The position numbers and the translations under genes are program-made. Shown here one piece after another: positions 1,557-55,012 of a DNA stretch of 64,000 nucleotides. Numbering within the stretch: position 1 is the stretch's first letter; the number at the start of each line of letters is the position of its first letter. This DNA is from Candidatus Micrarchaeota archaeon (GTDB taxonomy: Archaea > Micrarchaeota > Micrarchaeia > Anstonellales > Anstonellaceae). Below the pieces are notes generated by a model. It worked only from the letters and a program-made list of their open reading frames with translations, was not told the DNA's origin and made no database searches. The stretch is taken from assembly GCA_021814005.1 (NCBI GenBank), contig JAKAJC010000003.1:15934-79933 (forward strand). Direction: 5' to 3'.

Positions 1557-1600
1557 TTTTTTTTGCTTAATTTGCTGTTTTTGTTTTTTTTGCAAAGCCC
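1557..1600 (+). terminator. Oligo-T archaeal-type terminator downstream of the 498..1556 gene (ttttttttgcttaatttgctgtttttgttttttttgc).
   Basis: T-rich run immediately after the stop codon. Archaeal termination uses oligo-T tracts. Confidence 0.45.
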
Positions 1601-2436
1601 AGCTTCTTGTCGAAAAATCCGAACAGCTGTGACATCACAACCGGCAGCAGCGCGCCGTAAATCACGGCCAGCGGATATGTAACCACAATCCCGGCAATGG
1701 GGCCGGCCCATTCAACCCAGCCAAACGATGCCGCAGCCTCTTCTATCCCCGTGCTGATGAAACCGATGGCCAGCGGCAGCGGAATAACAAATATTCCTAT
1801 GACAATCAGGGCGAGAAAAATCTCCACCATGCGCCCCCGCGTGCGGTCGAAAGAGGTGCGGATGGAATATGCGGCATTGCCGTCTCCGCGCACAAAAATA
1901 AACGAGGCAAAACAGGTTCGGATGCAATGGATGAAAATCGCCACCAGCCATGCCATAAGTCCGATGCCGGCGATAAGCGCGGCGGCGTCGAACATGCTGT
2001 TCGAATCCTTGAGAACCGCGATGGGCGCAAGAACAAATCCGGCAGCAATAAACGCGAATGCGGGAATCAGCAGCCTTTTGTCATAGAGGCAGAAGAAATT
2101 CACCACAACCATTCGGGCGGTGAAAATCAGCCAGTCCAGCACGCCGGGAGCCGGCTTTTTCACAACAACGCCTGCCAAATTCATGGCAGCATGCAAAATC
2201 TTTGGCCAGAAATACATCTGGCTTATGATGAAAATCGCCATGGCGCCAAGCACGATGAGGCCGGTGGCCGCAGGATGGGTTTCCATCGTTCTGCTTGAAA
2301 TCACCGAGATTATGTCAAACATTGATGAAACAAAAACCGCAAGCACCACTAAGGAGAGCAGCTCCCGATTTCTGAATAGCTGCCAGCCTTTGCGCACGGC
2401 CGACAATGCGTCAAATGAAGCAGAAACAGCCACCAA
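1567..2436 (-). CDS. Polytopic integral membrane protein of unknown function, about 8 TM helices.
   Basis: ORF track. Multiple hydrophobic segments throughout (LSLVVLAVFVSSMFDIISVI, GLIVLGAMAIFIISQMYF, AFAFIAAGFVLAPIAVL and others). Basic C-terminal tail KKTKTAN. Confidence 0.6.
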   Translation of the reverse strand: MVAVSASFDALSAVRKGWQLFRNRELLSLVVLAVFVSSMFDIISVISSRTMETHPAATGLIVLGAMAIFIISQMYFWPKILHAAMNLAGVVVKKPAPGVLDWLIFTARMVVVNFFCLYDKRLLIPAFAFIAAGFVLAPIAVLKDSNSMFDAAALIAGIGLMAWLVAIFIHCIRTCFASFIFVRGDGNAAYSIRTSFDRTRGRMVEIFLALIVIGIFVIPLPLAIGFISTGIEEAAASFGWVEWAGPIAGIVVTYPLAVIYGALLPVVMSQLFGFFDKKLGFAKKTKTAN

Positions 2437-3630: not shown

Positions 3631-5064
3631 TCACTCGTTTTCATCTCTGGGCGGCTTCTTGGCCGGCGCTTTGGGGAGGGGCGGAGCTTTCGGGGGCGCG
3701 CCGAACAGCGGCAGAATAGGCCTGTGCGACACCCTCACGTCCTTGTCATCATCGTCATCAGGCCTCGACTGGCCGTAGTGCGGAATTGTCGGCCTGCTCG
3801 GCAGAATCGGCATGGTTGGAGAAGAAATATGCTGGGACGGGGTTGAGAGAGGCGGCCTGCCGAGCGCGGACGGCGGGCGCGTCGGGGGTGTGAGCGGATG
3901 TCCGGCAACCGCGCTCGTTGTCACACCACTCTTGGGCGTTTCTCCAACAAACGCCCTCTTGCTCAGCGAGAATGCCGGTCCGCCTTTGGCTTCTGGCAAA
4001 TGCACAGAAGATGCGGGCGTCTTGTAAGAGGAAACCGACGGCTTTGAATATGAAGATGCTGCCGGTCTGGAGAGGCCCGAGGGAGTGGAGGTGTGTTTTG
4101 AGTAAATCGAAGGCGTTGAAATGCCGTGCTTTGAGGCAAACGGGGAATCCGCCGTCTGGCCGGCAGATGCAGGCGTCTGTTTTGCTTTCGGAGCAGCCGC
4201 GCCCTGCGAACCCAATCCGGCTGCAGCGTGCGGGCCAACTGCCTTTGCATGCGGAACCCCGCCCGCAGCGCCTGTTTCGGCAATTTCTCTGCCTGCGCTG
4301 AATATGCTGCCAGTGCGCGTGCCTCCCGCCCCGAGCTTCGGCTTTGGTTTCACTTCTTTTTCTGGAATTTCGGCATCAACAAGCCGGTATCCGTTTTCAT
4401 CAATTGTTGTGAGATGGATGAGGTGCGCATGGGCCGAGCCGCGCATTTTCACCACTTCGAGAGTTCTCAGCCTTCTGTTTCCCTCCCGCATCCAGCCAAG
4501 ATGAATAAATCCGTCTGTCATTGCCTCGATGCCTACGCTTGTGCGTGGCAAATCCGGGTCGGGCGGCGTGACATCGCTTGCCGTGATAAGTGTAGTCACG
4601 CCCCATTTGCGGATTACATTGACAAGCTTCTGAATCGAGCGCTGCCTCTCGTCCCCGTCGCTCGAGAGCATGGCAAGCGGGGTGATGGAATCGAAAACAA
4701 CTCGCTCCACTCCGAGCGTGTCCACAAGCTCGAGAAGCGAGCCCTCCTGCTCCATGAAGCTGTTCAGCTCGCTTGAGGGGTATTCGATAAACACGACCTG
4801 CTTGTTTCGCTCCAATTCGGGCAGGTTCCAGTCGAACGCGCTCATGTTGGCGAAAATAGAATATTTGGGCTCGTTGAAAGAAAGATAGATGCCCGGCTCG
4901 CCGTTTTCCCGAAAACCGTTCACCAGAAACTGGGTTGCGAATGTTGTGCGGCCCGAGCCAGTGCTGCCCGAGACGGTGATTACGCTGTTTTTGGTGAATC
5001 CCCCGCCAATCATCTTGTCCAGTCCGGGTATTCCTGACGGCACTTTGGGAAAGAGCAGGTTCAT
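3631..5064 (-). CDS. KaiC/RecA-superfamily ATPase (single KaiC-like domain, ArlH/RadB-like) with a long (about 220 aa) Pro/Ser/Ala/Thr-rich low-complexity C-terminal tail ending in an acidic/basic patch.
   Basis: N-terminus GIPGLDKMIGGGFTKNSVITVSGSTGSGRTTFATQFLVNG (Walker A in KaiC/RadA context), then DSITPLAM and HLIHLTTIDENG. The tail carries repeated SYSKP/SSYKTP/IYSKHTSTP units, a DDDDDKD stretch and PPKAPPLPKAPAKKPP. Confidence 0.65.
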   Translation of the reverse strand: MNLLFPKVPSGIPGLDKMIGGGFTKNSVITVSGSTGSGRTTFATQFLVNGFRENGEPGIYLSFNEPKYSIFANMSAFDWNLPELERNKQVVFIEYPSSELNSFMEQEGSLLELVDTLGVERVVFDSITPLAMLSSDGDERQRSIQKLVNVIRKWGVTTLITASDVTPPDPDLPRTSVGIEAMTDGFIHLGWMREGNRRLRTLEVVKMRGSAHAHLIHLTTIDENGYRLVDAEIPEKEVKPKPKLGAGGTRTGSIFSAGREIAETGAAGGVPHAKAVGPHAAAGLGSQGAAAPKAKQTPASAGQTADSPFASKHGISTPSIYSKHTSTPSGLSRPAASSYSKPSVSSYKTPASSVHLPEAKGGPAFSLSKRAFVGETPKSGVTTSAVAGHPLTPPTRPPSALGRPPLSTPSQHISSPTMPILPSRPTIPHYGQSRPDDDDDKDVRVSHRPILPLFGAPPKAPPLPKAPAKKPPRDENE

Positions 5065-5111: not shown

Positions 5112-5672
5112 TTACTTCTTTTTCTCCCCTTTTTCTGCTTCTGCCTTTTTCTCCGCCTCTTCGGTCTTCTTGGCCTCGGCCAGAAGCTTCTGCCCCAAAG
5201 CTATGCGGAATGCCATCTGCTTCTCGAATTTGGCCTTCTCGGCCGGGTCAAACAGCTTTTTCTGGATAATGAACTGCGTCAAATCCTGCGCCATGGCCGA
5301 AATGCCCATCAGCGCCCTCTGCATCTCGCCAATCTCTATCTTGCTCTGGTTGGGCTCTTCAAGGTCGATTCCAACCGGTCCGTAAGCCATGGTGATGCGG
5401 GTGAGCGAGGGCAGGTCGTTAATCAGCATCGACACCTTGGCCGTGGATGAAAAGAGCTTGTCGCGCTCGGTGGGCTCGTCGATTTCGCCCACCGCGAAGC
5501 GCACGCCCTCCTCTTTTGTCAGCCTGCTCACAAACCCTACCATGCTCTCCTTGAGGCTCTGCTCGTCATTTGCGTGCATGTCGAAGTAGAAATGGACGTA
5601 ATATCCGCCGGTGCGGATAACCTGATGCTTGAGCTCCTCGAATTTGTGGTCGTCTGCAGTCATGTCATTCAA
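5112..5672 (-). CDS. Hypothetical protein with a Lys/Glu-rich C-terminal tail. Annotated start is TTG; ATG at 5663 is the likely start.
   Basis: ORF track. Globular-looking composition with a charged tail KKTEEAEKKAEAEKGEKKK. A TATA-like element and direct repeats lie upstream at 5685-5741. Confidence 0.5.
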   Translation of the reverse strand: MNDMTADDHKFEELKHQVIRTGGYYVHFYFDMHANDEQSLKESMVGFVSRLTKEEGVRFAVGEIDEPTERDKLFSSTAKVSMLINDLPSLTRITMAYGPVGIDLEEPNQSKIEIGEMQRALMGISAMAQDLTQFIIQKKLFDPAEKAKFEKQMAFRIALGQKLLAEAKKTEEAEKKAEAEKGEKKK

Positions 5673-5795: not shown

Positions 5796-7226
5796 CTATA
5801 GTTTGGGCGGCTTGTGCGCGAACCACATAATCTTGTATTTCCTCAGGCTGTGCCACACCACTATCGCCATGATGAACAAAAATACCAAATTGATGGCCAG
5901 CCACGTGTAGCCGCCCAACGGGGAGAGGGATTTCTCCACCTTCACCGACACTCCTTCGCCAGTGCCGCCGCGCGAGAGTCTGTCAAGGCTTAATGTCAGA
6001 TTTCTGCCAGACATTTCAACCGAGATGTTGTTGAGCATGGCAGTGATTTTTCCTTCCGGAAACTGCATCGCATAAGTGAACTGCACGTCGGCGCCGATGT
6101 CGCCCTGGGATTTGATGCGGGAGAGGTCATTGAACACAATGCCGCGCAGTCGGCCGGGCCCGAATTCCGCAGTGTTTGCCGCAAACTGGCCTGTGCTGTA
6201 TTTGGAGAGGGCGGTCATCAGCGTGCCGTTGTCCTCAACGCTCTGGTGCATCATCAGCAGGGCCCGCTCGCGGCTCGGCATGCGATAAACAAGCAGGTTG
6301 GACGCGTCTGGGCTTACTCCGGCCGGATATGCAACCTCGACAGCCAGCGTCTGGGCGCTTGCATTGCAGGGCATGCGCAGGCCCGCGGCGCCGATTTCAT
6401 CCAGTGTCCTGTTCACGGCATACGCATCACTGAGGTTCACCTGCCCTGTTTTGTAGGCGTCAGCACCAAATTCCGACTCCTGCTTGAAGCTGCACAATGC
6501 GCGCAGAATGCGCGTGCGCGAGAGGTTGATGCCATAATTCGCGCCCGGCGAGAGACGGAGGGTGAGGCCGCCGTCATTTCGTTCCACCCTGCACCCCAGC
6601 GTCTTGTCTCCGACACAGCCGTTTTGAGGCAGCTCGTCCGCGCGCCGGTCAATGTAGCTGTTGAGAAATGCGCGCAGGTCGCCTTTCTCCGCGGCCGTGC
6701 GGTCAGTATCATTCATCTTGCCGTATGCGAAAAAGCTTGGCAGGGGCGCGCGGCGGATTATGTATCTGCGCGTCTCTTTCAGCTCCAGCCAGTCGCGTGT
6801 TGTGTTGAAAATATAGAATCTGCCGTCAGGCTGCATCTGGCCGCTGATTTCAATGCCGCCATCCGCCTGCGCAGCGCATTTGAAAGGCGCCGCCACGCGG
6901 CCGCAGATGTCGCGGGCATATGTCCCTCCCTCGTAATACTCGGCGAGGCCTGATAGCAGAATTTCGCTGGCCTGCGGTCCCGCATCCTCGCTCAGCCTGC
7001 TTTGGGCAAGATAATCCTGCGTCTGGGCGGAGTTGAGGACCAGCCGCTCGCGCACCACTATGTCGGAATCTCCGCTCTCGTGGAAATCCTGCGAAATGTA
7101 AGTATGGTAAGTGACGCAGCCGGAAGAGAGCAGGAAAATGGCCGTCACGGCTGCAAGCATGATCAATGCTGGTCGCATAGGGGGCGTTTTGGGCTCAATC
7201 ATTTTAAGGCCTCGGCTAAGCAGCAT
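5796..7226 (-). CDS. Surface (lipo)protein paralog 1 of a 4-gene tandem family: N-terminal signal peptide with an LSSGC lipobox-like site, C-terminal conserved motif plus TM helix plus basic tail.
   Basis: N-terminus PALIMLAAVTAIFLLSSGCVTY. C-terminus GEGVSVKVEKSLSPLGGYTWLAINLVFLFIMAIVVWHSLRKYK. Many N-x-S/T sequons. The conserved terminal motifs are shared with the next three genes. Confidence 0.7.
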   Translation of the reverse strand: MLLSRGLKMIEPKTPPMRPALIMLAAVTAIFLLSSGCVTYHTYISQDFHESGDSDIVVRERLVLNSAQTQDYLAQSRLSEDAGPQASEILLSGLAEYYEGGTYARDICGRVAAPFKCAAQADGGIEISGQMQPDGRFYIFNTTRDWLELKETRRYIIRRAPLPSFFAYGKMNDTDRTAAEKGDLRAFLNSYIDRRADELPQNGCVGDKTLGCRVERNDGGLTLRLSPGANYGINLSRTRILRALCSFKQESEFGADAYKTGQVNLSDAYAVNRTLDEIGAAGLRMPCNASAQTLAVEVAYPAGVSPDASNLLVYRMPSRERALLMMHQSVEDNGTLMTALSKYSTGQFAANTAEFGPGRLRGIVFNDLSRIKSQGDIGADVQFTYAMQFPEGKITAMLNNISVEMSGRNLTLSLDRLSRGGTGEGVSVKVEKSLSPLGGYTWLAINLVFLFIMAIVVWHSLRKYKIMWFAHKPPKL

Positions 7227-7258: not shown

Positions 7259-8461
7259 TCATTTCTTCGCCGTTTTTCTGGCGGCGGGCTTGCGGGCTGG
7301 CCGCTCTTCCGCTTCGGGCGCTTCGGCTGCCGGCTCCTCCCACTGCGGCGCGGGCGTGTCGTACACTCCCGTTGCCGGCTCATTGTACGCCTGCGCCTGC
7401 CTGCTTTTGCGGCCTCTTGAGAGCACCAGCAAAAGGATTACCAGCACGGCGACCAGCACCACCCATGTCCATGCGCCGATGGGCGAGACGGGCTTGGCTA
7501 TCTTCACCACGATTTTGCCGGGCCCGTATTTGTACATGTCGTCAACGTTCAGCACGAGCTTGCCGTCCGTGAGAGTCACGTTCTTTCCGTTGATTGTGAC
7601 GCTGGACGGCGTCTGCGGGAATTCGGCCGTATAAGTGATTGTGTGCTCAAACGGCGGCAGCGCGTCATCCGGGAAGCTGAAAGAGCTCATGCGGTAGTTG
7701 TTCTCATATGTCGTCCCGCCGGCCACGCCGCGGTTGAAGTCAATGACATTGTCGACCGTCTCGAACTTGAAGCGGTCGTAGAACGCCTTGAATTCGGGCG
7801 GCAGGTTCGAGGTGTCGAACATGCTGTCTGTTGTAATCATGCCGAACGCGAGGCCGATTTTGAGCCTCAGGGCCGGGTCTGCGATGTTTTTGTTCGAATA
7901 GCTCTTGAGGTACGAGAACATGCTCTTCATCATTGTTTTGGCGGTGTCTGTTACCGTCTTGTTCTGGCTGTAATAATAGCTGTTGAGCGGCACCTGGCTG
8001 ATTTCATATGTTTTGACAGACTCGAAATTCATCCAGTCCATCCTGTCTGAGTAGGCGTAGAACTGGCCGGGCGCAAGTTTGGCCTTCATCACCGCGTGCC
8101 CGTCCTCGACTACGCAGCTTTCCACACCAGTTGCCTGGTCGCACTGCCATTGCGCGTAGCCGCCGTCGCGGAAGTAGGAGCCCGTGCCGCTTATCATGAC
8201 ATTGATTATTGTCTGCATCTCGGCCGCGCTGGCGGCGTCATAGTCTGCGCCGGTGAGGGCCTGGTTCGCATAATAGCTCTTAATCGCCTTGGCCATCAGG
8301 TCATCCACCTGGCTTGAGTAGGCGGTGTAATCCCGCAGCGTCAAATCGGAGGAGCCGTCAGCGTAGAATTTCTGCCCGGCCTCCTGCGTGATGGTGATGC
8401 AGCCCGAGAGGGCCAGCAGCATGGCGACGGCCATTGCAAACGCGTAATGCGCGAATTTCAT
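7259..8461 (-). CDS. Surface (lipo)protein paralog 2 (signal peptide, LSGC lipobox, C-terminal PxG-TW motif plus TM plus basic tail).
   Basis: N-terminus MKFAHYAFAMAVAMLLALSGCITITQEAGQKFYADGSSDLTLRD. C-terminus GPGKIVVKIAKPVSPIGAWTWVVLVAVLVILLLVLSRGRKSR. Shares the KTYEI motif with paralogs 3 and 4. Confidence 0.75.
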   Translation of the reverse strand: MKFAHYAFAMAVAMLLALSGCITITQEAGQKFYADGSSDLTLRDYTAYSSQVDDLMAKAIKSYYANQALTGADYDAASAAEMQTIINVMISGTGSYFRDGGYAQWQCDQATGVESCVVEDGHAVMKAKLAPGQFYAYSDRMDWMNFESVKTYEISQVPLNSYYYSQNKTVTDTAKTMMKSMFSYLKSYSNKNIADPALRLKIGLAFGMITTDSMFDTSNLPPEFKAFYDRFKFETVDNVIDFNRGVAGGTTYENNYRMSSFSFPDDALPPFEHTITYTAEFPQTPSSVTINGKNVTLTDGKLVLNVDDMYKYGPGKIVVKIAKPVSPIGAWTWVVLVAVLVILLLVLSRGRKSRQAQAYNEPATGVYDTPAPQWEEPAAEAPEAEERPARKPAARKTAKK

Positions 8462-8486: not shown

Positions 8487-9944
8487 TTAGCCGCTCTCTC
8501 TTTTGCTGCTGCCCATGGCGGCCTTGAGCACAAACCACGCTGCCACCAGAATAATCAGAAGCAGCGGGATTGCCCATGTCATCGCGCCGAAGGGCGAGAG
8601 TTCCTTTTCGGTCTTTACAACAATGCGGCCCTTGCCAAGCGCGGTCATGTCCGCGAGCGTCAGCTTGAAGCCGTTGCCGTCCATCGGCACGTCCTTGCTT
8701 CCGACCTTGGCGCTCACCACGTGGTCGGGGAAGTTCGCCGCATAGGTGAAGCTCACCTTGAAGTTGACCTGGCTGCCAGTGTCAACCAGCTTGCCCAGCG
8801 TTTCGTTGATGTCTGCAAAATCCATCTGGCTGATTTTGCCGTCGCGGAAATTGACAAGATAATACGACAGGTTCGCTCCGTAGCGGTCAATTGCCGACTC
8901 GAAGCTCGAGTCTGTGCTGACCTGCCTGAACGCGTCAGACACGTTCTGCATTATGCTGGCCTTGGACATGAGGGGCGTGACATCCGCGCTTGTCTTGTTC
9001 ACCGCGTGCCGGTTGCTGTAATTCTCGTCGTACTCGTATGTCTCCTCTTCTGTCACCATAACCAAGCTCTTGGAGCTGGCGGTGCATGGCATGTCAAGCA
9101 CAAGACCTTTGGAATCCGGAGTCTTGCCGACCATGGTCTTGGACTGCACATAGGGGCCGAGCTTGCTGGCGTTTATTTCCTTGAGATAATAGAATCCTTC
9201 CGGCAAATCTCCGGCAACTTCGGTGAGCTCCTCCTCACTCTTGTCGCTGCATCCGGCCCACAATATCTTGGCGTCGGATGAGAGGAACGAACTGCCGCTT
9301 GTGATGTTGAAGCGGGCGTTGCCGCCTGAAGTCGAGAGCACCTCGCAGGTGAATGGGTATGCCGAATAGCAGATGAAGTCGGTGGTGATGAAGTTGTCAA
9401 GCTCTGTCTTTAGCGCCGGTGTGAAGCGGTCGGCAAAGCTCTTGAGGAACTTCTGGCCGAACTCGCGGCCGGATTTGCCCTCGGCCGCGAAATAGAACAC
9501 TGTCGGCACCCTTTCTATCTCATATGTCTTGACCTCTTTCAGCGAGGCCCAGTCGGTGCTTGTGGTGACCGTGTAGAAGTCGCTGCCGCTCTTGAGCTGG
9601 GCTGTCAGATGCACGGCGCTTTCGGAATTGACAGTGCATTTGGCCGAGCTCTTGGCCTGGTCGCAGATGGCGTTGGCATAACTGTTGAACGCGAGGTCTG
9701 TGATGCGCACGCCGAGTTTGGCGTATTTGACCGGTATGCCGCCGCTCAAATACCCGCTGTTTGAGAAGAGCGATTCCATCATGCCGATAATCTCCTTGTT
9801 CACGCTGATTTCGTGGTCTATGACAAGTTCGGACGTGCCGTCGGGCCTAAACGTCTGCACCGTGTCATGGGTGAGATTGACGCAGCCGGACGAGAGAAGC
9901 AGTCCGATTGCGGCGAGCGCAAAGAGCAGAATCGAGTTCTTCAT
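8487..9944 (-). CDS. Surface (lipo)protein paralog 3 (signal peptide, LSSGC lipobox, C-terminal motif plus TM plus basic tail).
   Basis: N-terminus LLFALAAIGLLLSSGCVNLTHDTVQTFRPDGTSELVIDHE. C-terminus GKGRIVVKTEKELSPFGAMTWAIPLLLIILVAAWFVLKAAMGSSKRESG. Collinear with paralog 4 (AICDQAKSSAKCTV, KTYEIERVPTVFYFAAEGKSG, ILWAGCS, MVGKTPDSKGLVLDMPC). Confidence 0.8.
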   Translation of the reverse strand: MKNSILLFALAAIGLLLSSGCVNLTHDTVQTFRPDGTSELVIDHEISVNKEIIGMMESLFSNSGYLSGGIPVKYAKLGVRITDLAFNSYANAICDQAKSSAKCTVNSESAVHLTAQLKSGSDFYTVTTSTDWASLKEVKTYEIERVPTVFYFAAEGKSGREFGQKFLKSFADRFTPALKTELDNFITTDFICYSAYPFTCEVLSTSGGNARFNITSGSSFLSSDAKILWAGCSDKSEEELTEVAGDLPEGFYYLKEINASKLGPYVQSKTMVGKTPDSKGLVLDMPCTASSKSLVMVTEEETYEYDENYSNRHAVNKTSADVTPLMSKASIMQNVSDAFRQVSTDSSFESAIDRYGANLSYYLVNFRDGKISQMDFADINETLGKLVDTGSQVNFKVSFTYAANFPDHVVSAKVGSKDVPMDGNGFKLTLADMTALGKGRIVVKTEKELSPFGAMTWAIPLLLIILVAAWFVLKAAMGSSKRESG

Positions 9945-9954
9945 AGATACACCA

Positions 9955-10030
9955 CCATTTTCGCACGATTAAATAAAATGAAAAAACAAAAATGAAATGA
10001 AAAATAAAAACAAAAAACAATTTAAAAAAA
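9955..10030. terminator. A-rich (T-rich on the coding minus strand) low-complexity spacer between paralogs 4 and 3. Likely an oligo-T terminator for paralog 4 plus an AT-rich promoter/TATA region for paralog 3.
   Basis: Sequence aaataaaatgaaaaaacaaaaatgaaatgaaaaataaaaacaaaaaacaatttaaaaaaataaaaaa stands out as AT-only in a 60% GC context. Confidence 0.4.
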
Positions 10031-10050
10031 TAAAAAACGGCCCGCGCGGC

Positions 10051-11610
10051 TCACATCTGCGGCTGCTGCGGGGGCTGCTGGCCGGCGTATGTCGTCGGAG
10101 GCACGGTGTTGAGGTTTGCCGGCTCTTTGGGTTTGCGCCCGAGGAACCAGACCAAAAGTGCCAGCAATACGACAACTACAATCGCTCCTCCGAAGAGGAC
10201 AACGGGGTCGAGGCCGAATATCTTGCCGTTCGACTCGCTGGCCGGAACCGGCAGCGGTTTCTCGGTCTTTACCACGATTTTTCCCTTGCCCATGCGGACG
10301 AGGTCTGCGAGGGTGACCTTGAAGCCGTTGTTGCTGACTGCAATGGCCGTGCCGCTGCCGCCGACAACGCTTGTTACCGTGCCGGGGAAGCTGGCCGCGT
10401 AAGAGAGCTCGACATCAATGGTAATGTTGGCTGTCTCAAGCTGGCTCTGCGTTTTTGTGATGCTGTCCTGCATCTCCTCAAGCGTGGTGGAGTTGCCGAT
10501 AGTGCCTTTCTCGAGGTCTATGTTGAGCGCGTCAAGCTCTATGGGCCCGATTGGCGTGTCGTTGACCGGAATCTGGCTGATGTTTTCCTCCAGCTTGACC
10601 AGGCCGGCAACCAACTCGGCTTTCATGCTCTCCTTGGAGAGCAGGGCGTAGGTGTAAACAGTCGGCGCTATCGTGATGTTGGCTCTGGCCGCGTAGGAGC
10701 TCACCGGCGTTGCCGCCACAACAAGCGTCTTGGTGTCGTTGGACGGGCAGGAAAGCGACAGTTCAAGGCCTGTAACATCCGGTGTCTTGCCGATTGTCAT
10801 CTTGCGGCTCACAACCGCTGCGGCCTCGGTCTCGTTCATGTCCGAAATGTCGCTGACGTTGCGGGCGCTGCAGCCGGCCCACACGAGTTTGGCCGCAGGC
10901 ATGAGCCCGCCGCCCGAGCCGATGAGGCGCACATTGATGTTATTGCCGCTGTTCGACACGACATCGCAGCCGTACGGGCTTATGCCCAAGCAGTAGTAAT
11001 TGGTGGTGATTATCGAGTCAATGTCGCCGGGCAGCGTATTCTTGTAATAGCTTGTGAAGCTCTTTACAACTCCGCTCATAAACTCGGTGCTTGTCTTGCC
11101 CTGCGCTGTGAAATATGTTACTGTAGGGATTTTCCTTATCTCATAAGTGCGGATTTGTTTGGGGGCGGACGCGTTGGTGGTGTCGTTCACCACTGTCATG
11201 GTGTAGAATCCGTTTCCGGCACTGAGGCTGCCGACCACATGAATCTTGTTGTCAGGCCCGACCGTGCATGTGGCGCCCTTCATGTCAGCGCAAATCGCCT
11301 TGGCATATGCCTCGCTGGTGCGCTGAATCAGGCGCTCTATCAGCATGTAGTTTGTTTCCGTAATTGTCGGGAGCATGACATTGACCAGGCTCTTTATCTG
11401 GGTGATGTCGTTCTGCGGAAGCGCGAACTGGTGGTCTATGACGATTTCAGACGTGCCGTCCTCCTTGAAGGTCTGGGTGGATGTGTGCATGATGGTGCAT
11501 CCGGACAAAAAGAGCAGACCTGCAAGAAGAATTACCAAAAGAGCCGAAACTTTCATATCTAACACCACCGCTCCTCCACGAGAGAAGAAGCCACTCGAAT
11601 ATGCTTTCAA
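10051..11610 (-). CDS. Surface (lipo)protein paralog 4 (signal peptide, LSGC lipobox, C-terminal motif plus TM plus basic/Pro-Gln tail).
   Basis: N-terminus MKVSALLVILLAGLLFLSGCTIMHTSTQTFKEDGTSEIVIDHQ. C-terminus GKGKIVVKTEKPLPVPASESNGKIFGLDPVVLFGGAIVVVVLLALLVWFLGRKPKEP. Collinear with paralog 3. An ORF on the + strand here is rejected. Confidence 0.8.
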   Translation of the reverse strand: MKAYSSGFFSRGGAVVLDMKVSALLVILLAGLLFLSGCTIMHTSTQTFKEDGTSEIVIDHQFALPQNDITQIKSLVNVMLPTITETNYMLIERLIQRTSEAYAKAICADMKGATCTVGPDNKIHVVGSLSAGNGFYTMTVVNDTTNASAPKQIRTYEIRKIPTVTYFTAQGKTSTEFMSGVVKSFTSYYKNTLPGDIDSIITTNYYCLGISPYGCDVVSNSGNNINVRLIGSGGGLMPAAKLVWAGCSARNVSDISDMNETEAAAVVSRKMTIGKTPDVTGLELSLSCPSNDTKTLVVAATPVSSYAARANITIAPTVYTYALLSKESMKAELVAGLVKLEENISQIPVNDTPIGPIELDALNIDLEKGTIGNSTTLEEMQDSITKTQSQLETANITIDVELSYAASFPGTVTSVVGGSGTAIAVSNNGFKVTLADLVRMGKGKIVVKTEKPLPVPASESNGKIFGLDPVVLFGGAIVVVVLLALLVWFLGRKPKEPANLNTVPPTTYAGQQPPQQPQM

Positions 11611-34358: not shown

Positions 34359-35030
34359 CTAAACTCCCATCAAACTGGTGCCAAAGAACGCGACTGCGAA
34401 AAGCATGAGCCAGATGCGCCAGTCCCACAGCATCACCTTGAATCCGTCAAGCGGGAAGATGGGCAGCAGGTTGAACATCGCAAGCACAAGATTCACCTGC
34501 ACGCCCATTACCAGCACAAGGTTGAGCGCCGCATTGGGCGAGTCGGCCATGTCCAGAATCGGCCCGCCGACAAATATTGTGGCCAGCACAAAGAAAACTC
34601 CGGCCAGCAGAAGATTCATCACAGGGCCTGCAACCGAAATAAGGCCGTTTGCGCGCGGATTGATTCCGCGCGCCGAATATATCATCACCGCGCCGGGCGC
34701 AAGAAAGATTGGCAAACGTATGCCCCACACAATCTGGGGAATGATGGCAAGCCCCAGCATGAGCACAAGGCCGGCCAGCCACACTTCATAGCGCGCGCGG
34801 CATCCGAAGCGCACTGCAACATATTTGTGGGCCAGCTCGTGCAGAAGAAATCCTGAGCCCACCGTGATGGCGAAAATAATCATGAAAAACACGAACGGGC
34901 CGGCCTCAACATTTATGCCGCCGTTCTGGAAAGTGAGCGTGAGGCAGATGGCAAGAATGGAAGTGAGGATGTGGGTCCATTCCTCCCAGTCGATAAAGAA
35001 GCGCCCCTGCGCTCCCGAATAATTTTCCAT
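34359..35030 (-). CDS. Site-2 protease family (M50) intramembrane metalloprotease.
   Basis: HELAHKY (HExxH in a TM helix) and NLLPIFPLDGFKV (LDG motif). Polytopic. Confidence 0.75.
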   Translation of the reverse strand: MENYSGAQGRFFIDWEEWTHILTSILAICLTLTFQNGGINVEAGPFVFFMIIFAITVGSGFLLHELAHKYVAVRFGCRARYEVWLAGLVLMLGLAIIPQIVWGIRLPIFLAPGAVMIYSARGINPRANGLISVAGPVMNLLLAGVFFVLATIFVGGPILDMADSPNAALNLVLVMGVQVNLVLAMFNLLPIFPLDGFKVMLWDWRIWLMLFAVAFFGTSLMGV

Positions 35031-53947: not shown

Positions 53948-55012
53948 TTATCGGTATCCGTCAGCAAAATTAGTGTCGCAGCCGCTCTGCGATGCCGGAT
54001 CTGTCAAAATCTGCGGCGTGATAAAGAGCTTGAGATTTCCCACAAACGGCAGGCGTGCAAACACATGCCCGCGGATTTGGTCGAATTTCACGGGCATGTT
54101 GCCTTGTGAAGTCGAATAATCATAGGCCTGCAAATCAAAGATGGGGTTGTTGTCCCCCTTGGTGAGGTAAATGGTTGTGCCATCCGCCCCTTTCACAGCC
54201 AGCCGAACGCGGTGCACAATGTCTCCCACGCGCGCATAAAGCTCGCCGCTCTTTGGCCCGTAAACAATGAGCTCATAGGACGGGTCATATGCAATCGGTT
54301 TTCCTTCAAACGAGGTGCCGACCACGCAAATTGTCTGGACCGGCGTGCCGCTGCCGTCCGCCTTCACGCGCGGGCAGGCGCCGTAAGTGAATTTAATCGG
54401 GCCGTGAGTCTCGCTAAACGCGCCCGGCTGCTGCAAAAACACCTGGCAGCGGCCGTCTTTTCCGCCAATAGAGCGGTCATATGAGCAGTAGGCCAGAAGC
54501 GAGCCGTTAATTTCGAATGTGCCGTCAGCGGATGTGATTATGGCGCTCGAATTTATGTCCGACACCGGACCGGCGTAATTTACCTGCAGTGTTTTGATGT
54601 CCCCGCCTTTGAGAAAAACCATATCTCCTCTTTCATAAGCCGGCCGCATGGAGCATGACACAATGGCGTTGATTGGCGTGGGCGTCTGCAGCACCCAGCC
54701 TGAGCCGAACCACACAATGAGCGCAACCAGTATGGCAATAGCCGTATTCTTCAGCTCGTTTTTCAGCCCGCCCTCTTTTGCTCCGGCGTAAAATTCCCAC
54801 ACCACAATAAAGACCATGAGCAGGCCGGCAGTCAGGCCGAAGAGAATGTTTTTGGACAGGATGTAGAACACGAAGAGAAGGAGAAGAACGAAATAATACA
54901 TCGGCACTTCGCCGACAACCGGCAAATTCACCGGGGACGTCAAAGCCAGCACAAGCGGGTGCTCGGCCCAACCCGAACGGGGGGCTGATGGCTTTTTTGC
55001 CGGTTCGCTCAC
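53948..55012 (-). CDS. Signal peptidase I (S26 family, Sec11-like) with an extended C-terminal domain.
   Basis: N-terminal TM helices, then IVSCSMRPAYERGDMVFLKGGD (catalytic Ser box SxSMxP...GD). A long beta-rich extracytoplasmic region follows. Confidence 0.6.
   Translation of the reverse strand: MSEPAKKPSAPRSGWAEHPLVLALTSPVNLPVVGEVPMYYFVLLLLFVFYILSKNILFGLTAGLLMVFIVVWEFYAGAKEGGLKNELKNTAIAILVALIVWFGSGWVLQTPTPINAIVSCSMRPAYERGDMVFLKGGDIKTLQVNYAGPVSDINSSAIITSADGTFEINGSLLAYCSYDRSIGGKDGRCQVFLQQPGAFSETHGPIKFTYGACPRVKADGSGTPVQTICVVGTSFEGKPIAYDPSYELIVYGPKSGELYARVGDIVHRVRLAVKGADGTTIYLTKGDNNPIFDLQAYDYSTSQGNMPVKFDQIRGHVFARLPFVGNLKLFITPQILTDPASQSGCDTNFADGYR

Follow-up and report, generated by a model that had tools for sequence, protein, structure and literature searches.

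Four paralogous genes lie in tandem within a stretch of 64,000 nucleotides from contig JAKAJC010000003.1 of a Candidatus Micrarchaeota archaeon, a stretch referred to in its entirety as the window, and the 3′ end of the third of these genes encodes the C-terminal protein module that is the subject of this analysis. A first-pass annotation of the DNA had placed the module at 8490–8640, described it as a motif that is followed by a transmembrane helix and a basic tail in proteins that also carry an N-terminal lipobox, and proposed that it constitutes a protein-sorting signal of the sortase type, the outcome being either a cleaved, lipid-anchored protein or a doubly tethered one. The tripartite layout and the accompanying lipobox are both borne out, and the flagged interval corresponds to the final 49 codons of paralog 3 (8490–8636, minus strand).

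The tandem array and the N-terminal lipobox

The array is composed of four co-directional open reading frames (ORFs) on the minus strand, separated by gaps of 25–106 bases, in a window that also contains archaeal housekeeping genes:

5796–7226, minus strand: paralog 1 (W1), ORF of 476 residues
7259–8461, minus strand: paralog 2 (W2), ORF of 400 residues, without the middle insert
8487–9944, minus strand: paralog 3 (W3), ORF of 485 residues, containing the flagged region
10051–11610, minus strand: paralog 4 (W4), 519 residues as listed, 504 residues in database gene calls

Paralogs 2, 3, and 4 align end to end with paralog 1 at 23–25% identity, and none of the four matches a family in Pfam and NCBIfam scans. 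Each contains exactly two hydrophobic segments by Kyte-Doolittle analysis, an N-terminal signal and a C-terminal helix, the latter with peak values of 2.6–3.2. Paralog 3, which is identical to a database protein (P0001) on contigs of assemblies GCA_027332495.1 and GCA_027332525.1, is predicted to be a secreted protein with an N-terminal lipobox and a C-terminal transmembrane anchor. Nearly all of paralog 4 is spanned by an antisense ORF of 521 residues (9997–11562, plus strand), which has an Arg/Gly/Cys/His-rich composition and resembles a shadow ORF rather than a gene.

In the four paralogs and in most of their relatives, the hydrophobic N terminus ends in a lipobox cysteine. The lipoboxes of the array, each at the end of the N-terminal signal, are encoded as follows:

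9882–9896, minus strand: LSSGC of paralog 3 (Cys21)
8399–8413, minus strand: ALSGC of paralog 2
7116–7130, minus strand: LSSGC of paralog 1
11497–11511, minus strand: FLSGC of paralog 4

When compared with the pattern [LVI][ASTVI][GAS]C expected where a signal peptide ends, ALSGC and FLSGC are exact fits, and LSSGC of paralogs 1 and 3 carries a Ser at lipobox position −3. Cys21 is invariant in alignment A2 and is found in 93% of the sequences of the 27-sequence family alignment. The analogy with archaeal lipoproteins makes lipidation of this cysteine probable. AliA, which is required for the lipidation of archaeal lipoproteins, has been reported in DPANN archaea (PMC12462473), and given that report, lipoprotein lipidation in the Micrarchaeota lineage is plausible.

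Alternatively, lipidation might not occur, the N terminus being a signal peptide of the ordinary kind or a signal anchor that is not cleaved, and Cys21 participating only in a disulfide; the protein would then be a plain type I or two-helix protein, with the C-terminal motif serving just as a helix cap. Such an arrangement would account for the Ser, rather than Leu, Val, or Ile, at position −3 in paralogs 1 and 3, and would agree with the ectodomain, which contains several conserved cysteine pairs and, judging from these pairs, would be disulfide-bonded. In addition, AliA is missing from some DPANN genomes (PMC12462473). We regard this alternative as improbable nonetheless: [LFI]-x-[AGS]-G-C immediately follows a hydrophobic stretch in nearly all relatives, including distant ones of about 250 residues, and in the AlphaFold2 (AF2) model a β-strand starts right after the Cys. 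A β-strand directly after the Cys is typical of lipoproteins.

The C-terminal module

The C terminus of paralog 3, GKGRIVVKTEKELSPFGAMTW AIPLLLIILVAAWFVL KAAMGSSKRESG, can be laid out as GKGRIVVKTEKEL-SPFGAMTW-AIPLLLIILVAAWFVL-KAAMGSSKRESG. The peptide strings that had been given for paralogs 1 and 2 are accurate, and paralog 4 deviates in the manner already described for it. The components of the module are located as follows:

8601–8624, minus strand: last ectodomain β-strand of paralog 3, IVVKTEKE (residues 441–448), assigned with DSSP; mean predicted local distance difference test score (pLDDT) of 89 over a 10-residue block
8574–8597, minus strand: motif SPFGAMTW of paralog 3 (residues 450–457), the predicted N-cap and first two helical turns, with the helix starting at Pro451
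8526–8594, minus strand: hydrophobic span of paralog 3, PFGAMTWAIPLLLIILVAAWFVL (residues 451–473), 23 residues from the Pro to the first charged residue
8490–8525, minus strand: predicted cytoplasmic basic tail of paralog 3, KAAMGSSKRESG, delimited by ORF and span analysis
7463–7486, minus strand: motif SPIGAWTW of paralog 2, within a C-terminal module at 7262–7525
5901–5924, minus strand: motif SPLGGYTW of paralog 1, within a C-terminal module at 5799–5960

In the AF2 model of W3 (pLDDT of 79.8 and predicted template modeling score of 0.73), the strand formed by residues 441–448 is followed by a helix that runs from Pro451 to residue 481. The strand precedes the motif by two residues, and no linker, low-complexity or otherwise, is modeled between the folded domain and the motif. 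The strand block itself is conserved at 2.64 bits per column in the family alignment.

The hydrophobic segment of paralog 3 has its Kyte-Doolittle peak at residues 457–473. Across the family, the span from the Pro to the first charge has a median of 23 residues (range 19–34), and without the residues of the motif this span would be just 12–18 residues long, and the motif thus makes up the outer portion of the membrane-spanning helix. If this region is helical, the geometry of the sequence places the Gly, the Thr, the Trp, and the frequent Pro at position Trp+3 within an arc of approximately 100°; in about half of the carriers, this Pro is part of an IP pair. Conservation of a single helix face in this way points to packing against another helix or to placement at the membrane interface. 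Helices are commonly N-capped by Ser-Pro.

Following the helix, the tail has a median length of 7 residues and begins with KK, RK, RR, or RKK in nearly all carriers, Lys being about as common as Arg. In many members, the protein stops two to seven residues past the helix. Tails of 28–59 residues are found in 3 of 27 carriers, among them P0033 (59 residues) and paralog 2, whose predicted cytoplasmic tail of 52 residues includes GVYDTPAPQWEEPAAEAPEAEER. The description of this element as a short basic cluster does not hold for paralog 2. The strand, helix, and tail are present in all four paralogs, and the SP..TW residues are missing from paralog 4, as the first-pass annotation had indicated. 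In paralog 4, the strand (GKGKIVVKTEK), helix, and basic tail remain (10054–10290, minus strand), and its C terminus contains GKGKIVVKTEKPLP, an insertion, and then FGLDP; the position of LSP.G..TW is occupied by PLPVPASESNGKIFGLDP, a variant that is also present in P0010 and P0023.

A six-frame regular-expression scan of the window finds the motif only within the paralog genes, three of which, in tandem, bear it. The nucleotide identity among the modules of the paralogs is 48–65%, and identical motif residues are often encoded by different codons. Because synonymous sites differ, gene conversion is ruled out as the cause of the identity of the motif among the paralogs, and the similarity is held at the protein level.

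Distribution of the motif and retention of the helix

An exhaustive HMMER search of 1.84 billion representative sequences with a 12-sequence family profile yielded only 51 matches, 22 of them below 1e-30. The motif, in the form [SF]-P-[LFIVA]-[GE]-x-x-[TV]-W, stands directly before the C-terminal helix in approximately 30 of these 51 cluster representatives and is kept in relatives that are only 27–28% identical to W3, with the Ser, Pro, Gly, Thr, and Trp being nearly invariant among carriers. The named sources of the family are Micrarchaeota or uncultured archaea only, with Candidatus Micrarchaeota as the origin of the nearest named relatives. The motif is the highest-scoring 8-residue window of the family alignment (3.06 bits per column), and core blocks of the ectodomain are barely below it (TYEIxxVP, 2.99 bits; FxxDGTS, 2.83 bits). 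Judged on the alignment, the conservation of the motif is ordinary for the family. The motif is a real, selected feature of a small family that so far comprises Micrarchaeota and unnamed archaeal contigs.

All carriers of [SF]P.G..TW have the other conserved blocks of the family or are fragments of family members. Genomes were scanned with a 6-sequence alignment of the module. The strict pattern LSPLG[VI][FY]TW occurred 9 times among 185,579 species genomes, where a rough estimate from residue frequencies gives about 13 by chance. Two of the nine matches are real, and both are family genes of Micrarchaeota; a match in Tectomicrobia (L010) was discarded as a chance match, being antisense to a gene of 1136 residues. 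All five confirmed motif matches in metagenomes are likewise family genes. Nonexhaustive homologue searches, performed with the family alignment or with the module alone, returned almost nothing; these searches were weak and missed known positives, and the sole match of the module-only search is a family fragment. As to sensitivity, the full-length profile sees modules outside the query set at only 23–36 bits, and diverged modules outside the family could escape it. Tandem pairs of family genes are also present on metagenome contigs L012 (52–2450) and L013 (2–1926), and local duplication of the family thus recurs in other organisms.

Relatives that lack the motif retain the helix and the basic tail. 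These comprise the clade of W4, P0010, and P0023; P0035 and P0037; and the distant relatives P0042–P0058, which are 230–390 residues in length. In P0047, P0054, and P0056 (286–334 residues), tails of approximately 40–90 residues extend past the transmembrane helix, and the alignment of those of P0047 and P0054 shows a small domain that is apparently helical (for example, ...ELVKYAKENLKAGHAPGRIRKSLVDAGWPKDDVDNALDAAQ). On this sequence evidence, the helix appears to be ancestral and retained in the family.

Within two subclades, the C-terminal segments are conserved above the ectodomain. Between W1 and P0014, identity is 74% in the helix as opposed to 64% in the ectodomain, and P0027 and P0028 are 58% identical in the helix, 50% in the tail, and 35% in the ectodomain. 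The helix of paralog 1, LAINLVFLFIMAIVVW, is conserved in its relatives, and the tails of P0021 and P0059 have a motif in common, MDRPDS..P..GER..RK. Helix and tail alike are constrained beyond hydrophobicity, which argues that the helix is kept, as such constraint is not expected of a segment that is cut off and discarded. In the paralog 1 clade, conservation of the helix above that of the ectodomain hints at a specific contact within the membrane; the helix of this clade (W1 residues 443–461; P0014, P0021, and P0059) contains a conserved polar Asn in the sequence LAINL[VI]FL.IM.

Comparison with sorting signals and membrane anchors

As the first-pass annotation had stated, the motif is not a named one. 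NCBIfam models, including PGF-, PEF-, PEP-, GlyGly-, MYXO-, and CGP-CTERM, were scanned against full proteins and isolated C termini at E ≤ 10, and on the family every sorting-domain model of NCBIfam and Pfam stays below its threshold. The sole sorting-domain match is PEF-CTERM on relative P0009 (E = 0.13, 12.6 bits versus a cut-off of 23), and the named sorting domains were discarded as candidates on the basis of these scans. If the motif is a sorting signal, it would be a new one.

The attribute list of Haft for tripartite C-terminal sorting signals was used as a benchmark (bioRxiv 10.1101/2023.06.07.544157). According to this list, many pairs of carriers lack similarity apart from the signal (attribute 7), and homologues elsewhere are shorter, lack the signal, or have a different signal (attribute 8); in dedicated systems, the enzyme and its target are regularly encoded in adjacent or nearby genes (bioRxiv 10.1101/2023.06.07.544157). 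Several attributes of a sorting signal are found in the family: multiple copies (three tandem paralogs, with 64 kb seen), a strongly hydrophobic transmembrane segment (attribute 4), a terminal basic cluster, for which the list specifies two to five residues (attribute 5), and a signal peptide (attribute 6). The discriminating attributes are absent. Every carrier found is homologous to the others over its whole length as a member of one family, and homology does not open with the invariant residues of the motif but runs upstream through the entire protein. With regard to attribute 8, the complete motif-less relatives keep the helix and basic tail and are not shorter, and P0024 and P0044 may carry other signals.

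The enzyme that such a system would need has no counterpart at the loci analyzed. Among 24 scanned ORFs of the window, none matches an archaeosortase, exosortase, rhombosortase, or sortase model, and apart from the family gene itself, no gene is common to the neighborhoods of the window and of loci L006 and L009 (flanks of up to 10 kb), and no enzyme gene adjoins the family at any of the three. Literature searches returned no report of an archaeosortase in Micrarchaeota or DPANN, and a review places the archaeosortases in a subset of Euryarchaeota (PMC6098224). A 289-residue membrane protein with about seven hydrophobic segments (1567–2436, minus strand) is encoded four genes downstream of the array. 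It has no Pfam or NCBIfam match at E ≤ 10 and is not a conserved neighbor of the family elsewhere, and its candidacy as a hidden sortase is unsupported.

Other genes of the window include a single-domain KaiC-like ATPase (3631–5064, minus strand; ATPase domain at residues 8–227), which ends in a Pro/Ser/Ala-rich low-complexity tail of approximately 250 residues. The gene for this ATPase is adjoined by a small MJ0538-family gene (5112–5672), which lies directly downstream of the array. Two general membrane proteases, neither of them linked to the paralogs, are represented by a homologue of archaeal-type signal peptidase I (53948–55012, minus strand; 48.2 bits, just under the cut-off of 51.85) and a homologue of the M50 site-2 proteases (34359–35030, minus strand).

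The proposal of a sortase-type signal therefore did not hold up well, its carriers being one family with no enzyme beside the gene in the window, L006, or L009. Two findings had been named beforehand as counting against it, namely, a motif limited to the four paralogs without a partner sortase and a helix that is a conventional stop-transfer anchor. The motif is confined to a family, albeit one that extends beyond the four proteins, no partner enzyme is found in the window or at the other loci, and the helix is kept in motif-less relatives, some of which have cytoplasmic domains behind it.

In a dedicated system, the SPxGxxTW motif, helix, and basic tail would be read by a candidate Micrarchaeota intramembrane protease or transpeptidase, which would either remove the helix, leaving the N-terminal lipid to hold the protein, or add a second lipid at the C terminus. 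We consider this unlikely. The tripartite layout, whose helix entry carries five nearly invariant residues, the signal peptide, the several copies per genome, and the median tail of 7 residues all speak for it, and even the long tails are compatible with cleavage, as one substrate of ArtA carries its PGF-type tripartite structure away from the C terminus and yields a long C-terminal fragment (PMC6098224). Set against these features are the full-length homology of the carriers, the lack of any low-complexity linker preceding the motif, the absence of a linked enzyme, the euryarchaeal distribution of known archaeosortases, and the conservation of the helix and tail above the ectodomain in two subclades.

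Two relatives bear on this question. P0024 (MFH1306604.1, Candidatus Micrarchaeota) is a full-length family member outside the window in which the motif is replaced by a Gly/Ser/Thr-rich linker and Cys-Val-Pro, followed by a helix and RRK (...GGSTGGGDDGGTLCVPAATFAMLAGFVIFNRRK). P0044 (CIPGF) ends in ...EEKPFCIPGFILLFIGLGALSTK.... Both C termini resemble Cys-type or PGF-type signals, though neither matches an NCBIfam model. P0024 seems to carry a different C-terminal signal, as would be in line with attribute 8. In a more specific version, which we rate slightly lower still, a dedicated C-terminal processing system with an enzyme that is nonhomologous to known archaeosortases, or too diverged to be detected, would turn a doubly tethered precursor into a lipid-only surface protein, and relatives of the P0024 type would use a Cys-based signal.

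Similar to PGF-CTERM, the signal of archaeosortase A, and to PEF-CTERM, the module has a Pro/Gly-rich motif at the entry to the C-terminal helix and basic residues after it, and as in the PGF-CTERM/archaeosortase A system, it occurs in archaeal surface proteins with an N-terminal signal peptide. In contrast to archaeosortase signals, the family motif occurs in one homologous family only, runs directly on from the folded domain, lacks a preceding Thr/Ser-rich linker, and is followed in some members by a long or conserved tail, and no archaeosortase is found in the 64 kb window or beside the family gene at the other loci. A low-complexity linker is typical of PGF-, PEP-, and LPXTG-type substrates and is not seen in the W3 model. 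CGP-CTERM and MYXO-CTERM, which are cleaved by myxosortases of the CPBP/Rce1 type, are also tripartite; CGP-CTERM is archaeal, and the end of P0024 resembles this class, whereas the motif of the window has no cysteine, matches no model, and has no linked CPBP gene.

A combination of N-terminal lipobox and C-terminal helix has been described for LppM of Mycobacterium tuberculosis (Rv2171, PF21946), which has a lipobox as well as a C-terminal transmembrane domain (PMC5217060). The family shares with LppM the signal peptide with lipobox, the extracytoplasmic domain, and the C-terminal transmembrane domain. LppM differs in being bacterial and in having no demonstrable homology to the family: only 1 of 13 distant relatives matches PF21946, below the cut-off (E = 0.03), and a profile search of the PDB gave only weak, chance-level matches (best E = 0.32), with no LppM entry among them. 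To our knowledge, LppM does not contain the SPxGxxTW motif. Lastly, single-pass type I anchors that have a Pro as N-cap and a Trp at the interface resemble the module in having a stop-transfer helix of about 23 residues, an interfacial aromatic residue, positive charges on the inside, and a variable tail. The difference from ordinary anchors of this type is the five-residue signature, which is unusually well kept at approximately 25% identity and in this respect suggests specific packing or a partner contact rather than generic anchoring.

Another possibility is that the helix is a true anchor that also serves as a shedding site, cut by a general intramembrane or juxtamembrane protease of the rhomboid, site-2 protease, or CPBP type such that the ectodomain is released or remodeled under some conditions. 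The outer third of the helix contains helix-destabilizing residues (SP, G, and, at W+3 in about half of the carriers, IP). An M50 site-2 protease homologue is encoded in the window, and an Rce1-like gene is located approximately 10 kb from the family gene in L006. These proteases are, however, common housekeeping genes that are not linked to the family, and after such a cut the ectodomain would still be held by the N-terminal lipid and would not be released. Shedding is thus quite doubtful, about as doubtful as the absence of lipidation.

Probable tethering of the family at both ends

Taken together, the sorting-signal reading is not supported by the tests run, yet it is not refuted, and the doubly tethered alternative, one of the two outcomes offered by the first-pass annotation, is better supported. 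The paralogs and their relatives are, with reasonable likelihood, a family of permanently anchored and probably doubly tethered lipoproteins with a family-specific helix-cap and interface motif. In this arrangement, the N-terminal signal peptide would direct export, the lipobox cysteine would receive its lipid, and the disulfide-rich ectodomain would fold outside the cell. The last β-strand (IVVKTEKE) would run without a linker into the Ser-Pro of the helix cap, and the Gly, Thr, Trp, and frequent Pro at Trp+3 would lie together on a single face of the helix, within its first three turns and in the outer leaflet. This face may fix the register or orientation of the ectodomain with respect to the membrane, or it may pack on a helix of the same protein or of a partner. 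The basic tail would halt transfer and remain cytoplasmic. The mature protein would then be tethered at both ends, and the motif would be a structural or interaction element of one family rather than a portable address label. We infer both the role of SP..G..TW as a helix cap with an interfacial or packing face and the permanent anchoring by the C-terminal helix that makes this a doubly tethered surface protein.

Several observations weigh against this interpretation. Residues 451–460 of the W3 model, which include the motif, have a pLDDT of only 57. Residues that perturb helices (Ser-Pro, Gly, and often the Pro at Trp+3) abound in the motif, whose position is the very one occupied by PGF, GlyGly, and Cys-type signals. 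Tails are very short in most members, with many proteins ending in KK or RK, as in cleaved signals, and P0024 has a C terminus that resembles a different sorting signal. With the N terminus anchored by a lipid, the C-terminal helix would be dispensable. The search for an enzyme covered the window (64 kb) and flanking DNA to a maximum of 10 kb, and carriers outside the family, with diverged modules scoring at 23–36 bits, could be missed. Lipidation, topology, and helix retention are read from sequence and a structural model.

Were the motif cleaved after all, it would represent a new sorting pathway in a phylum for which none has been described. If instead the family is permanently anchored, as favored here, it would define an uncharacterized surface-protein family, not covered by any Pfam or NCBIfam model, that is disulfide-rich, tandem-duplicated, and probably double-tethered. 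It would add an archaeal case to the lipobox-plus-helix architecture known from LppM, which would be useful for annotation without establishing a new principle. Surface proteins of this kind are, in our view, plausible candidates for mediating contact between small DPANN cells and their hosts.

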